A DNA stretch of 29,000 nt from Candidatus Bathyarchaeia archaeon (GTDB lineage Archaea > Thermoproteota > Bathyarchaeia > Bathyarchaeales > Bathycorpusculaceae), in contig DATEAU010000193.1 in NCBI GenBank assembly GCA_035288165.1, positions 1-29,000 of the forward strand. The letters are read 5' to 3'. Numbering within the stretch: the first letter of the stretch is position 1; every line of letters begins with the position of its first letter. A program made the translations under genes and the position numbers. Below the pieces are notes generated by a model. It ran no database searches. It was not told where the DNA came from and saw only the letters and a program-made list of their open reading frames with translations. This document shows, piece by piece, positions 16,505 through 19,738 of this stretch.

Positions 16505-16774
16505 CTAAAGCAGGAGGGACGCGAGAAGTTTGTACAGTTCTTCTTTGGTTTTGATGCTTCTGAAGATGGCTTTGCCGCTCGTGTAAACTCGGAAGGAAAC
16601 GTCTTTGAAGCTCATTTCAAGAATTATGCCGGCTATGGTGTTCTTGAGCTCTGCTTTCTTGCGAATATTCGCTATCGCCTCGTCTTTCTTGTCGTACTTG
16701 AAGACGACGATTATGTCTTTTTCTTCGCCGCAGGTTCCTTCGATTCTTGCCACGTAATCGTCAACGGTGGGCAT
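16505..16774 (-). CDS. Small hypothetical protein with a single Cys; resembles the stand-alone C-terminal domain of archaeal MoeB/ThiF proteins
   Basis: 89 aa. Its ATG overlaps the sufS stop (TAATG). It contains GTCG near the N-terminus and RVYTSGKAIF…KEELYKLL near the C-terminus. Confidence 0.75.
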   Translation of the reverse strand: MPTVDDYVARIEGTCGEEKDIIVVFKYDKKDEAIANIRKKAELKNTIAGIILEMSFKDVSFRVYTSGKAIFRSIKTKEELYKLLASLLL

Positions 16775-18009
16775 TAGAGCTTTTCAATCTCCTTTAGGAC
16801 TTCGATGAAGCGGTCGATTTCTTCGCGTGTGTTGTAGATGTAGAAGCTTGCTCTGGCGGAAGACTGCAGTTTGAAGACTTGGTGCAGAGGCTGTGCGCAG
16901 TGGAAGCCGCTGCGTATCATTATGCCATAGTTGTCGCAGAACAGCGCGACGTCGTGTGACGATAGGCCTTGGACGCTGAACGGGATGATTCCGCACTTCA
17001 ACGCGGTGTCTGTGGGTCCGTGAAGTGTGACTTTGCTGCATTCTTGCATTCGCTTAATCGCGTAGTTGGTCAGGAAGCATTCGTGTCCTTGGACCTGGTC
17101 CATTCCGATTCTTTGCAGGTACTTTACAGCTTCGCTTAAGGCGATGGCGCCGCAGATGTTTGGCGTTCCAGCCTCAAACTTCCAGGGAGGATCGTTAAGG
17201 CTTATGTCGCATTGCTCTTTTGCACCGCTGAAGGAGACTTCTTTTATCATTTCTCCGCCGCCCTGGAACGGGTCCATCTTTTCGAGGAGCGTTTTCTTGG
17301 CGTAGAGTACGCCTATGCCGGTTGGTCCGAGCATTTTGTGTCCAGAGAAAGCTAGAAAATCCGCGTCCAAGTCTCTTACATCTATGGGCATGTGCGGGAC
17401 TGATTGTGCGCCATCCACGAGCATCAATGCGTCGTGTTCGTGGGCTACTTTGGCGATACGTTTGACGCTGTTGATTACGCCGCTGACGTTTGAAACATGG
17501 CTTAGGCAGGCGATTTTTGTTTTGTTTGTGAATTTGCCCTCAAAGTCTTCGTAGTTGAGGGTGCCGTCGGGGTTTACTTTCGCGTATTTTATGGTGAAGC
17601 CGTTTATTTTTGAAATGATTTCCCAGGGGACGATGTTGCTATGGTGCTCCATCAGTGAGACTAGGACTTCGTCGCCCCGTTTGAGGTTGCGGAGTCCCCA
17701 TGAGTAGGCTACGAGGTTTATGGCTTCTGTGGTGCTTCTGACGAAAATGATTTCGGCTGAGTCTTTGGCGTTTATGAATTTGGCGATTCTTTCTCTGGCG
17801 GTTTCGTACATGTCTGTGGCTTCAAGCGACAGCGTGTGCACTGCCCGGTGGATATTGGCGTTGTGGTTTTCGTAAAACTCGCTTATGGCTTCGATGACTT
17901 GTCTGGGTTTCTGGGTAGTGGCTGCGTTATCAAAGTAGATTAACGGGTTGTCGTTTATTTTTCGTTTAAAGATGGGGAAGTCTTCGCGAATCCTGCGGGG
18001 ATCTAGGAT
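16774..18009 (-). CDS. sufS: Group II cysteine desulfurase SufS
   Basis: IREDFPIF…LIYFDNAATTQKP (hand-translated upstream of the ORF-track start), MEHHSNIVPW, DGAQS, FSGHKMLGP, EAGTP, RSGFHCAQP and ARASF. About 411 aa if translation starts at ATC 18009. Confidence 0.93.
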   Translation of the reverse strand: MLDPRRIREDFPIFKRKINDNPLIYFDNAATTQKPRQVIEAISEFYENHNANIHRAVHTLSLEATDMYETARERIAKFINAKDSAEIIFVRSTTEAINLVAYSWGLRNLKRGDEVLVSLMEHHSNIVPWEIISKINGFTIKYAKVNPDGTLNYEDFEGKFTNKTKIACLSHVSNVSGVINSVKRIAKVAHEHDALMLVDGAQSVPHMPIDVRDLDADFLAFSGHKMLGPTGIGVLYAKKTLLEKMDPFQGGGEMIKEVSFSGAKEQCDISLNDPPWKFEAGTPNICGAIALSEAVKYLQRIGMDQVQGHECFLTNYAIKRMQECSKVTLHGPTDTALKCGIIPFSVQGLSSHDVALFCDNYGIMIRSGFHCAQPLHQVFKLQSSARASFYIYNTREEIDRFIEVLKEIEKL

Positions 18010-18512
18010 TGTTTTTCCTCCGCTCCCTTCAGCCTTTTAGATAGGGTTTTGGCTAGTTCTTCCTCTTCTATCGCCTGCTTTTCTTCGAAAGTCAGTTCTT
18101 TGGGAATCCAGTCTGGAGTGTTGCCTCGGTCTGTGAAGTATTTTCTGATTGCTCGTTTTACGGCGCCTACGGCGAGGATGCCGCAGTGGAATTTGACGCT
18201 GGGTAAGCCGCCGACTTCTTCGGTTACTTTTTTCCAGGTTACGTCTTTCCAGGCGGTTTCGAGGCTTAAGCCTTTGATCATTTCGGTGACGATGCTGGCT
18301 GTGGCTATGTTAGCGGCGCATCCGTAGCTTTCGAAGGTGGCTTTCTCGATGATTTGTTGGTCGGTGATTTTCATGTAGAAGGTTATCATGTCTCCGCAGG
18401 CGGGGTTTCCTGCTACTGCCACTACGCTTGCGTCTTCCATTTTTCCCTGGTTTTTCGGGTTTCTGAATAGGTCTAGGACTTTTTGGGTGTAGGGTAAGGG
18501 TACTCGTGACAT
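18003..18512 (-). CDS. iscU: IscU/NifU-type Fe-S scaffold protein
   Basis: Three conserved Cys in ACGDM, GCAA and KFHC (the KxHC motif is IscU-like rather than SufU-like). N-terminal YTQKVLDLFRNPKN and a charged C-terminal tail. Confidence 0.9.
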   Translation of the reverse strand: MSRVPLPYTQKVLDLFRNPKNQGKMEDASVVAVAGNPACGDMITFYMKITDQQIIEKATFESYGCAANIATASIVTEMIKGLSLETAWKDVTWKKVTEEVGGLPSVKFHCGILAVGAVKRAIRKYFTDRGNTPDWIPKELTFEEKQAIEEEELAKTLSKRLKGAEEKQS

Positions 18513-18514
18513 TT

Positions 18515-19738
18515 TTAATCAACTCCTGTTGAGCCGACTATTCCTCTTATTCGGTTCACTGCTTTAGGAAGCACTCCTAAGACATAAGTTATATCCTCTT
18601 CTGTCATGAAGCGGGTGGTTTTCATGAGGATGCTACCGTGGGCTTCGCTGAATTTTCTGCCGATGGCGACGAGGACGTGGCTGGGTTGGAGGAGTCTTCG
18701 GCTGCAGGCGCTGCCGCTGGACACGTATATTCCGCTGAGGCTGAGTTCGATGGTTAAGGCTTCGCCTTCAGCGCGGAGGAAGCTTATGTTAGCGTTGTCT
18801 GGCGAGCGTTTTTCGCCAGTTGCACCGTTGAGTTTTACGTCTATGAGCCCTTTGAATATGCCGCCCACGAGCTTGTCTCGCAGGGAGCGCATGCGGTTCG
18901 CGTTCGCCTCGAAGTCTTGGAATGCCATTTCGGAGGCTTTTGTGAAGCCGACGATGAGCGGCGTGTTCTCGACGCCTGGCCACAGCTTTTGCGTGCCAAT
19001 TTGCCCTTCAAGGATTTTCTCGACGTTTACGCCTTCCCTGATGTAGAGGGCTCCGATTCCGCGGGGACCGAGAATTTTGAAGCTGCTCACGGTCGCCATG
19101 TCCACTTTTAAGTCTTGAACGTTAACGGGGATTCTGCCGTATGCGTCTGAAGCGTCCGTGTGAAAAATGACGCTGGGGTTTTTGTCTTTGACGATGTCTA
19201 CTGCTTCCTTGATGGGTTGGATTGTTCCGAGTTCGTTGTTTACGATTTGCACGCTCACAAGAACTGTCTGTGTGTCGACAGCTTCCTTGAGCTTCTCTAA
19301 GTCGATTGTGCCTTCCGTGTTCACGGGAACTTTGGTTGTCGTGAAACCGTATTTTTGTAGCAGTTCCGCGACATGTAGCACGTTGATGGGTTCGATTTCT
19401 GAAATTACGATTTTGTTGCCTTTCGATTTGTTCGCAAATGCTGCACCCATGAGCGCGAGGTTGTTGGCTTCAGTTTCTCCAGGCGTGAACGTCAGTTCTT
19501 CAAGGATTTTGGCGCCCATGAACTTGCTGATTTTCTGGAACGACCCCATTATGACCTCGAACGCTTCCCACCCGGGCTTATGCGTCAACGTCGGGTTGCC
19601 GTAAGCTTTCTTGCTGAAGTAAGGCAGCATGGCGTCGACGACTTCTTGGGGAACCATGGTGCTGTTTTCGTTGTCGAGGTAGACTTCGTGGGTTATGCCT
19701 TCGTGGGCTTTGAGGAGTTCTTTTACGTTTTCAACCAA
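18515..19738 (-). CDS. IscS/NifS-like (group I) PLP-fold protein with a degenerate active site
   Basis: YLDN, GNP, TEANNLA, VNNELGTIQP, FHTDA, K-ILGPRGIGAL and VSSGSACS are present. The conserved His, Gln, His, Thr and Arg positions are substituted. Start is TTG 19738 or GTG 19828. Confidence 0.88.
   Translation of the reverse strand: MVENVKELLKAHEGITHEVYLDNENSTMVPQEVVDAMLPYFSKKAYGNPTLTHKPGWEAFEVIMGSFQKISKFMGAKILEELTFTPGETEANNLALMGAAFANKSKGNKIVISEIEPINVLHVAELLQKYGFTTTKVPVNTEGTIDLEKLKEAVDTQTVLVSVQIVNNELGTIQPIKEAVDIVKDKNPSVIFHTDASDAYGRIPVNVQDLKVDMATVSSFKILGPRGIGALYIREGVNVEKILEGQIGTQKLWPGVENTPLIVGFTKASEMAFQDFEANANRMRSLRDKLVGGIFKGLIDVKLNGATGEKRSPDNANISFLRAEGEALTIELSLSGIYVSSGSACSRRLLQPSHVLVAIGRKFSEAHGSILMKTTRFMTEEDITYVLGVLPKAVNRIRGIVGSTGVD

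Follow-up and report, generated by a model that had tools for sequence, protein, structure and literature searches.

A conserved four-gene operon of Bathyarchaeia joining a probably non-catalytic IscS, IscU, SufS and a TBP-fold cysteine protein: a putative sulfur relay for Fe-S cluster assembly

Four genes lying side by side on the minus strand of the window (the whole 29,000-nucleotide stretch of DNA analysed here) encode an IscS-like protein lacking catalytic residues, hereafter IscS*, a canonical IscU, an intact SufS and a small cysteine protein with a TBP-like fold. The recurrence of these four parts together in many related archaea points to an undescribed sulfur feed into Fe-S cluster assembly. 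We lean, with reserve, towards a four-part assembly machine derived from the minimal archaeal iron-sulfur system (MIS), in which SufS would pass sulfur to the TBP-fold carrier and the latter to IscS*-IscU, these roles being inferred from sequence and gene context. The division-of-labour Fe-S module proposed in the preliminary description of this DNA is supported by the conservation of the gene order, the residues of IscS*, the intact SufS and the invariant cysteine of the small protein. Gene identities, residue states, fold, conservation and linkage could be established; every biochemical role in the module is inferred.

Results

Gene junctions and the start of sufS

All four ORFs were found where they had been placed, between 16505 and 19738 (Table 1), and two of the junctions reported between them stood as described. 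A 2-nt gap separates the iscS* stop (TAA 18517-18515) from the iscU ATG (18512), and a TAATG is formed by the sufS stop (TAA 16776-16774) and the ATG of the small gene, which begins at 16774. The third junction, given as a 7-nt overlap between iscU and sufS, holds only if sufS starts at a non-canonical ATC (18009-18007), and not otherwise.

Table 1. Features of the four-gene operon.
Feature	Coordinates	Strand	Remarks
iscS* (MisS-like, type I desulfurase fold, probably non-catalytic)	18515..19738	-	407 aa, TTG start
iscU (MisU) scaffold (putative)	18003..18512	-	169 aa; conserved acidic C-terminal tail of ~40 aa
sufS, intact type II cysteine desulfurase	16774..18009	-	411 aa counted from ATC 18009
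sufS translation start region	18007..18021	-	GGAGG 18021-18017, 7-nt spacer, ATC 18009-18007 overlapping the iscU stop codon
Small single-repeat TBP-fold protein, one invariant Cys	16505..16774	-	89 aa; Cys15, motif E-G-T-C-G-E

Since no ATG, GTG or TTG is present in the sufS frame between the in-frame TAA at 18039-18037 and GTG 17841, and yet the 56 codons upstream of GTG 17841 encode the conserved SufS N-terminus, it would appear that sufS lacks a canonical start and that its translation can only begin at ATC 18009, the sole possible start. Of 30 loci compared, window included, 15 have ATG and 12 have ATC at the homologous codon, and the remaining 3 have a TTG placed one codon further on. 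In two other soil metagenome runs, moreover, contigs spanning the iscU-sufS junction showed no mismatch. An assembly error at the ATC is ruled out by its presence in relatives and by these independent contigs. An in-frame stop, selenocysteine or pyrrolysine was also discarded, the correct frame being open from 18036. A -1 frameshift joining IscU to SufS is unlikely, no slippery heptamer of the X XXY YYZ type being found at GAGGAAAAAC, and it is further disfavoured by the plain ATG at the homologous codon in 15 relatives' loci; it is not excluded experimentally. SufS would be translated from this ATC, which follows a strong Shine-Dalgarno sequence, with an output that is presumably low and coupled to the translation of iscU. 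The TTG start of iscS* at 19738 is supported by relatives, in which that codon is ATG (14) or TTG (6) and is often closely preceded by stops. The locus comes from soil metagenomes, and a search of sequencing runs found no RNA runs containing it.

IscS*, IscU and SufS

IscS* has an Aminotran_5 domain (E=2.8e-57) and stays under the NCBIfam cut-offs for NifS/IscS (376 vs 531 bits). With E. coli IscS as the reference for numbering and comparison, it carries the substitutions H104P, Q183D, H205F, T243V and R354L, the latter at the substrate-binding arginine, and retains T76, N155, D180, S203, the PLP lysine K206 and C328 of the Cys328 loop. This pattern was repeated in 20 orthologues, and Lys206 is present in all orthologues. 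Phylum-wide, Q183D and R354L were found in every IscU-linked IscS examined, H104 and H205 being still present in more distant members of the clade. The unlinked NifS/IscS of the same genome retains all the residues missing from IscS*. The five substitutions, with Cys328 present, back the earlier designation of IscS* as a dead IscS-like protein, a status that is an inference only, since the PLP lysine is still there. Residual or altered activity is not excluded, because the PLP lysine, Asp180 and the catalytic cysteine are all present.

Some of the best PDB matches of IscS* came from the Archaeoglobus fulgidus IscS2-IscU complex (4EB5, 4HVK, 4R5F; E=5.6e-87). A. fulgidus IscS is experimentally inactive (PMC8918507); it has been proposed to give a cysteine ligand to the IscU cluster, and sulfide is the hypothesised sulfur source (PMC8918507, PMC13066941). 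IscS* shares with it the type I fold paired with IscU, R354L, the loss of Gln183 and the cysteine of the Cys328 loop, and so conforms to the A. fulgidus type in its lost substrate-binding residues, its loop and its pairing with IscU. It departs from this type in the PLP lysine, which is replaced in A. fulgidus (Asp199), where His104 is present, whereas Lys206 is found in IscS* and its orthologues and both His104 and His205 are gone from the window protein. Unlike the window, A. fulgidus has no SufS or TBP-fold partner mentioned in the literature consulted (PMC8918507, PMC13066941).

IscU (NifU_N, E=7.7e-38) is encoded by the sole NifU_N gene in the genome. Every full-length orthologue has C37, D39, C63, H105 and C106, and the window protein scores under the SufU cut-off (67 vs 92.5 bits). 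With His105 present and such a score, the window protein is, judging from its sequence, an intact and canonical IscU of the IscU type. SufS had been described as intact, and it indeed passes the NCBIfam sufS cut-off (TIGR01979, 577 bits vs 475), as expected for a SufS-family type II desulfurase of the SUF system. The motifs HHSN, DGAQSVPH, SGHK and HCAQP are all present, and among PDB entries the SufS of B. subtilis matches best (5XT5, E=8.5e-136).

Other Fe-S machinery in the genome

The absence of sufBCD, sufE and sufU from the window was borne out, and extends to the whole 81%-complete genome. In that genome no SUFBD_core, no SufC over the cut-off and no SufE were found; of the SUF system, neither the SufB/SufD-SufC scaffold nor a SufE/SufU acceptor was identified. 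No A-type carrier was found in it either. The genome search for sufBC and other desulfurases, advised as a check, yielded no sufBC, and a canonical NifS/IscS. SUFBD_core was found in only 11 of the 36 family genomes and is absent from many whose completeness is 97% or more, and SufB is absent from most near-complete family genomes. The scarcity of SUFBD_core speaks for the four-part machine proposed here.

MIS (MisS-MisU), the minimal archaeal iron-sulfur system, reportedly goes back to Garcia et al. 2022. Summaries of that work (PMC13066941, PMC12442378) present it as bipartite, its desulfurase being functional, with "no additional components". The window resembles it in having adjacent archaeal genes of IscS type and IscU type without chaperones (HscAB), ferredoxin or A-type carrier. 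It differs in that its MisS is devoid of catalytic residues and that SufS and the TBP-fold cysteine protein are added to the unit; a functional PLP-dependent MisS is lacking by sequence only, activity itself being inferred. The operon, labelled "hybrid ISC/SUF" earlier, is better called MIS-derived (MisS/MisU type) than a hybrid of bacterial ISC and SUF.

The small TBP-fold protein and the E1 tails

According to its AF2 model (pLDDT 90.2, the Cys loop lying in the lowest-confidence block, 69), the small protein has a single copy of the TBP-like half fold. Its profile matches archaeal TBP (E=1.9e-5). Against the TBP Pfam family PF00352 it reached only 15.8 bits, for a gathering cut-off of 22.9, with a single repeat instead of two in tandem. 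A fold search of the PDB gave only weak matches (best E=0.096), most of them TBP and the RNase HIII N-terminal domain, and no functional analogue. Cys15 is invariant in 21 orthologues. Twelve homologues from the phylum but outside the class, read over their full length, all have it, and so do those distant cluster representatives that were inspected.

The small protein is homologous to the C-terminal tail of the Bathyarchaeial ThiF/MoeB E1 (hhalign probability 95%, E=4e-8). The E1 tail has a conserved cysteine near its start, collinear with Cys15. That the two cysteines correspond is inferred from this collinearity, because the hhalign alignment spans only residues 37-89, leaving Cys15 outside. 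With its tail homology and its cysteine near the N-terminus, the small protein has both marks of the TBP-like Cys domain of long ThiF/MoeB E1 enzymes (NCBIfam NF009123; Makarova & Koonin 2010, PMC2948915; Brindefalk et al. 2013, PMC3597702), and differs in being free-standing within an Fe-S assembly operon, not carried on an E1. The E1 encoded in this genome matches NF009123 over the whole length. SufS also meets E1 elsewhere: a SufS paralogue lies directly beside a long-tail E1 in one genome, an E1-linked SufS copy was found in genome G011, and a SufS paralogue was found in an operon of E1, sulfur-carrier and PALP genes.

The function of the TBP-like tail of E1 is unknown and the roles of free-standing single TBP domains are undescribed (PMC2948915, PMC3597702), one such monopartite protein being YP_184404 of T. 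kodakarensis (PMC3597702). No paper linking cysteine desulfurases with TBP-like proteins was found in the literature search, which covered the searchable library only. From accession-number arithmetic alone, YP_184404 may be TK1991, which would adjoin the SufS-type desulfurase TK1990; the search returned no relevant paper on TK1991.

Known SufS-SufU (B. subtilis, 5XT5) and SufS-SufE (E. coli) pairs resemble the window in the association of a type II SufS with a small protein having one key cysteine and in the placement of sufS beside a gene of the IscU family. They differ in that the window's small partner is TBP-like and unrelated to SufE or SufU, that its IscU is of the IscU type, and that no SufBC(D) scaffold was found in the genome or in most relatives.

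Gene orders among relatives

The gene-neighbourhood comparison that had been suggested was carried out and came out strongly in favour of the module. IscU, SufS and the small protein were adjacent in all 30 loci examined first, and the order iscS*-iscU-sufS-small was found in 19 of 20 longer loci; with such figures, the arrangement is not due to chance. The small protein, IscS* and a SufS orthologue were present in each of the 36 sampled family genomes, with all four genes linked, and the four-gene order is conserved throughout that family. Phylum-wide, at least six gene orders (that of the window and five others) combine these four parts, and SufS genes of two separate clades, both supported at 100/100, are linked to the IscS*-IscU module. 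A divergent layout, IscS*-IscU facing away from SufS-small, was found in families f58, f72 and f76, and in family f64 the SufS-small pair stands alone, without adjoining IscS* or IscU.

The membership of the small cysteine protein in the module is supported by its invariant cysteine and by its place directly after SufS in three independent layouts, one of which is the lone SufS-small pair. For clade-2 SufS loci (9 of 17 rows read directly), layouts A, D and E all have the small gene immediately after sufS, the exceptions being a contig with sufS upstream (L063) and the E1-linked copy in G011. In three families (f7, f18, f43) and two public contigs, the small gene follows iscU and no SufS is nearby. 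Lineages without the small protein have TusA and DsrE at IscS*-IscU instead, upstream of IscS-IscU in families f11, f14, f24 and f27 of the same class. These operons share with the window the R354L/Q183D IscS clade, IscU and small sulfur carriers, and differ by the absence of SufS and of the TBP-fold protein, and by an IscS that has His104 and His205. Either TusA/DsrE or the TBP-fold protein accompanied IscS*-IscU in every lineage examined.

Distant SufS-like genes in four genomes (G042, G044, G050, G058) had no Fe-S partners; their neighbour has an N-terminal CxxC..GEG and resembles a uracil-DNA glycosylase, by eye only, and these genes shed no light on the module.

Discussion

In the mechanism that we propose, persulfide sulfur would be made from cysteine by the intact SufS, and accepted by Cys15 of the small protein, on a flexible hairpin loop, for delivery to the IscS*-IscU complex, a role held elsewhere by SufE, SufU or TusA. 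IscU would be the scaffold. IscS* would no longer break down cysteine and would serve as a structural partner of IscU; through its Cys328 loop it could also offer a ligand for the cluster or for sulfur, which has been proposed for A. fulgidus IscS. This four-part machine is favoured by the residue losses of IscS*, the intact SufS and the canonical IscU, as well as by the conserved four-gene order, the five other layouts and the two linked SufS clades. That the TBP-fold protein is probably a persulfide carrier, as far as sequence can tell, is favoured by its invariant cysteine, its homology to E1 tails, the adjacency of SufS and E1 in one genome, and its alternation with TusA and DsrE.

The primary partner of the small protein could nevertheless be IscS*/IscU, as it follows iscU without a nearby SufS in some lineages. 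It would then be an accessory of IscS*-IscU, either a regulator or adaptor of the frataxin/CyaY or IscX kind or a cysteine cluster ligand or carrier, with SufS delivering directly to IscS* or IscU. It co-occurs with IscS* at least as tightly as with SufS, and the closest solved SufS is of the SufU-dependent B. subtilis type, which makes an IscU-like acceptor plausible. Such a role fits poorly, however, with the lone SufS-small pair, with the small gene lying directly downstream of clade-2 sufS (L063 and G011 excepted), with the fusion of its homologues to E1 sulfur-transfer enzymes and with its alternation with TusA/DsrE sulfur carriers, and we regard it as unlikely, without dismissing it. We find it improbable that IscS* has stayed enzymatically active, as a desulfurase whose cofactor contacts have changed or which acts on another substrate, and forms with IscU an ordinary MIS pair, while SufS and the small protein would be a separate delivery pair (for tRNA thiolation or cofactors), merely co-transcribed. 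The presence of K206, D180, T76, S203 and C328, the H104 and H205 of distant clade members, the existence of SufS-small without IscS*-IscU, and the SufS paralogue in the E1, sulfur-carrier and PALP operon all speak for it. On the other hand, R354, which binds the substrate carboxylate, is Leu in every member examined, as also in the inactive A. fulgidus IscS (PMC8918507), two different SufS clades were recruited beside IscS*-IscU, in different positions, and the 2-nt gap and the overlaps, as signs of translational coupling, point to a single stoichiometric unit.

We give very little credence to a feeding of IscS*-IscU by free sulfide, a route hypothesised for A. fulgidus and demonstrated for SMS systems; SufS and the small protein would then be no more than a back-up or detoxifying route. 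Use of sulfide by minimal archaeal systems is treated in the literature (PMC13066941, PMC8918507) and variants without nearby SufS exist; but linkage of SufS is seen in most lineages and, without exception, in the sampled genomes of the window's family, sulfide is not necessarily abundant in the soils from which the metagenomes came, and the TusA/DsrE or TBP-fold carriers seen in every lineage examined would be unnecessary for free sulfide. Also to be set against the four-part machine as a whole are these points: the canonical NifS/IscS of the genome could supply the sulfur, and direct use of sulfide has been proposed for other archaeal minimal systems.

How sulfur is supplied to archaeal minimal Fe-S systems is an open question, and so is how a non-desulfurating IscS, such as that of A. 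fulgidus, supports cluster assembly (PMC8918507, PMC13066941). The four-part machine offers an answer that can be tested, a recruited SufS and a new kind of small cysteine carrier, and directly so in vitro, the four proteins being small and soluble. It provides, in addition, a way to approach the function of the TBP-like tail of E1-like enzymes and that of single TBP domains that stand free. More tentatively, and here we stop just short of an even judgement, the TBP-fold protein may represent a third, structurally unrelated class of SufS persulfide acceptor, beside SufE/CsdE and SufU, feeding a non-catalytic IscS-IscU, and the ThiF/MoeB tail may be a built-in sulfur-receiving domain replacing the rhodanese domain. 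On this same tentative footing, the machine may be the main de novo Fe-S route of many Bathyarchaeia and other Thermoproteota, and in lineages without SufBC the only one. The answer would apply to a large and abundant group of uncultured archaea of soils and sediments.

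Organisation of the operon

Four genes, encoding an IscS-like protein (IscS*), IscU, SufS and a small protein of the TBP fold with a single cysteine, lie head-to-tail on the minus strand, and opposite-strand genes flank the unit on both sides.

Coordinates of the four-gene unit and of its flanking genes
Feature	Positions	Strand	Remark
iscS* (IscS-like gene)	18515-19738	minus	ORF
iscU	18003-18512	minus	ORF
sufS	16774-18009	minus	ORF, counted from ATC
small gene, 89 codons	16505-16774	minus	ORF
predicted membrane-protein ORF, 526 aa	ends 16485	opposite to operon	flanking gene
helicase-like gene, 745 aa	starts 20097	opposite to operon	flanking gene

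As the preliminary description had it, the iscU ATG comes two bases after the iscS* stop, and the sufS stop and the small-gene ATG share a TAATG. The 7-nt overlap also claimed between iscU and sufS stands if sufS begins at an ATC (18009-18007), but no canonical start gives it. No ATG, GTG or TTG is present from the in-frame TAA at 18039-18037 to the GTG at 17841, and the 56 codons upstream of this GTG encode the conserved SufS N-terminus. This ATC, located 7 nt after a GGAGG (18021-18017) and overlapping the iscU stop by 7 nt, is, judging from the sequence, the only workable start. Across 30 loci of relatives (window included; junctions L009-L038), the codon homologous to this ATC was ATG in 15 cases and ATC in 12, and 3 loci had TTG one codon later; the ATC loci take in every member of the window's genus that this comparison included. 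Contigs of two other soil metagenome runs cross the junction without a mismatch. Given the ATG or ATC found at the homologous codon of relatives, together with these independent contigs, the ATC is most simply read as real, and as a putative lineage-conserved non-canonical start, which presumably tunes the SufS level below that of IscU. The TTG start of iscS* at 19738 was confirmed by the ATG (14) or TTG (6) present at the same codon in relatives, where stops are often found just upstream.

Two isolated observations concern these genes. One soil-metagenome contig lacks 192 bases at window positions 16594-16787, a gap that removes the sufS stop along with most of the small gene. In the 9-contig assembly of G001, a relative, the sufS orthologue (L021, C6:968131-969364) falls in two frames that overlap (residues 1-147 and 143-411), so that it is either a pseudogene with a frameshift or the product of an indel error.

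A probably non-catalytic IscS next to an intact SufS

IscS* has a type I desulfurase fold, and scores well below the NCBIfam NifS/IscS cut-offs. Compared to E. coli IscS, it carries H104P, Q183D, H205F, T243V and R354L, and retains T76, N155, D180, S203, K206 and C328. The same pattern was found in 20/20 orthologues, and the HMMER alignment to PDB chains is consistent with it. Arg354 of IscS is the residue that binds the substrate carboxylate, and its His104 stacks on PLP; without them, cysteine desulfuration by IscS* is unlikely, an inference drawn from sequence. All IscU-linked IscS proteins examined in the phylum share Q183D, R354L and T243V/I/L, and a subset, window included, has H104P together with H205Y/F/N.

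The preliminary description left to a genome search whether other desulfurases exist, and one does: the window's own genome (G000, 81% complete) encodes an unlinked NifS/IscS which retains every residue replaced in IscS*, meaning that the substitutions are specific to the IscU-linked copy. Judged by eye alone, one neighbour of this canonical gene (C2, L002:1447-2631), which has all catalytic residues, resembles a sulfide:quinone reductase ORF, and another a diphthamide-synthase-like PP-loop ATPase gene.

SufS passes the NCBIfam sufS cut-off (577 vs 475 bits) and carries active type II desulfurase motifs, its closest solved structure being B. subtilis SufS. IscU is of the IscU rather than the SufU type by NCBIfam comparison, and all five cluster-site residues are present in every full-length orthologue. 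Unlike E. coli IscU, it bears a conserved acidic C-terminal extension of ~40 aa (window 18003-18130 and orthologues; E-L-T-F-E-E-K-Q-A-I-E-E-E-E-L...), which may be a docking element.

Conservation and variants of the module

The small protein, IscS* and SufS orthologues were each found in 36/36 sampled genomes of the family Bathycorpusculaceae, and in parts of the order too. The hybrid operon singled out in the preliminary description proved to be a conserved neighbourhood: IscU-SufS-small adjacency was seen in 30/30 loci examined first, and the complete four-gene order in 19 of the 20 longer loci. The small protein occurs in 58/251 genomes of the class and in 57/351 genomes of the phylum, about 28 of the latter being out-of-class.

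The same parts come in at least six layouts: IscS*-IscU-SufS-small (A), SufS-IscS*-IscU-small (B), IscS*-IscU-small with a convergent SufS (C), IscS*-IscU and SufS-small divergently transcribed (D), SufS-small alone (E), and IscS*-IscU-small with no SufS nearby (F). The SufS tree splits into two clades, both supported at 100/100. One contains the upstream and convergent types, plus module-unlinked SufS-like genes of two genomes (G042, G044); in the other, layouts A, D and E have the small gene directly after sufS, with the exception of an upstream-sufS contig (L063) and of an E1-linked copy in genome G011. By this tree, two different SufS lineages have joined the IscS*-IscU-small module, which is difficult to account for unless there is a functional link.

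In four other families of the class (f11, f14, f24, f27), which have this IscS clade and no small protein, IscS*-IscU is immediately preceded by genes for a DsrE-family protein and TusA. In these operons (L081-L086), a sister variant of the window's module, IscS* has R354L and Q183D with His104 kept, and neither SufS nor the TBP-fold protein is present. All lineages examined combine the pseudo-IscS/IscU pair with dedicated sulfur-handling partners of either kind. The only TusA homologue of G000 (C212:4807-5010, L106:1453-1716; CPYP motif) sits, by eye, between sulfite reductase-like and cysteine synthase-like ORFs.

The small TBP-fold cysteine protein

No curated family covers the small protein, which gave a sub-threshold TBP match and no NCBIfam match. 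An AlphaFold model from an alignment of 21 orthologues was confident (pLDDT 90.2) and predicts a half-TBP fold, beta-beta-alpha-beta4-alpha, in which the cysteine would sit in the hairpin loop joining strands 1 and 2, the model's least confident block. Its profile matched archaeal TBP at E=1.9e-5; PDB fold matches were weak, mostly to TBP or the RNase HIII N-terminal domain. Cys15 is invariant in the 21 orthologues, and is retained in 12/12 fully read out-of-class phylum homologues and in the distant cluster representatives inspected. It belongs to a narrow family, with 96 clusters at E<=0.001 in a search of 1.84 billion representatives, and the family members, from Bathyarchaeota/Bathyarchaeia MAGs, are labelled hypothetical protein, 'RNase HIII' or 'TBP'.

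The profile also matches the C-terminal ~95 residues of Bathyarchaeial ThiF/MoeB-type adenylyltransferases (E1), one in G000 included. Profile-profile comparison with the tails gave 95% probability (E=4e-8) over residues 37-89 of the small protein, and these tails have a conserved cysteine at the collinear N-terminal position. This TBP-like tail is known on many archaeal and bacterial E1-like enzymes, its function being stated as unknown (PMC2948915, PMC3597702). The G000 enzyme (C75:2671-3717, L068), which aligns over its whole length with the long-form MoeB/ThiF model NF009123, has an L-C-G motif in its ~95-aa homologous tail; no SufS or Ubl gene adjoins it. In G011, a relative, a second SufS copy directly adjoins a tailed E1, in an operon (L079, C51:73200-82500) with a ThrC-like PALP enzyme and a ThiS-PALP fusion, which resembles a sulfur-carrier-dependent Cys/homocysteine pathway with SufS as its supplier. 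Together, the tail homology and this SufS-E1 operon place the TBP-fold cysteine domain in sulfur-transfer contexts beside SufS.

Interpretation

The division of labour proposed in the preliminary description remains the best supported reading, in a refined form, with no step having biochemical support. The machine would derive from MIS, the minimal archaeal MisS-MisU system, its IscS-type partner being now non-catalytic and keeping a scaffold and cysteine-ligand role, for which A. fulgidus IscS is a precedent (PMC8918507), while a recruited SufS would take over sulfur mobilisation. The TBP-fold protein is most likely a persulfide acceptor or relay, again without biochemical support, and its role is the main uncertainty. 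As the small gene comes after IscU in loci where SufS lies elsewhere or is missing, its product could act mainly for the IscS*-IscU complex. It is also possible that IscS* has some residual activity, or that sulfide is used directly.

MIS, inactive archaeal IscS, SufS with SufE or SufU, and the TBP-like E1 tail are already described. The literature searched contained no conserved association in which SufS and a TBP-fold cysteine protein join a pseudo-IscS/IscU pair, nor an alternation of the SufS/TBP-fold set with TusA/DsrE. That the small protein represents a new class of sulfur carrier is a realistic possibility.

The absence of sufBC, noted earlier for the window, extended to the available G000 sequence, where a search gave no hit for the SufB/D core, SufE or an A-type carrier, and none above the cut-off for SufC; one Mrp/ApbC-type carrier is present. 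SUFBD_core was detected in 11/36 genomes of the family, and not in many that are >=97% complete. Absence from draft genomes is no proof, but on these counts most of these organisms would have, beside this operon, no other recognisable scaffold system for making Fe-S clusters de novo.
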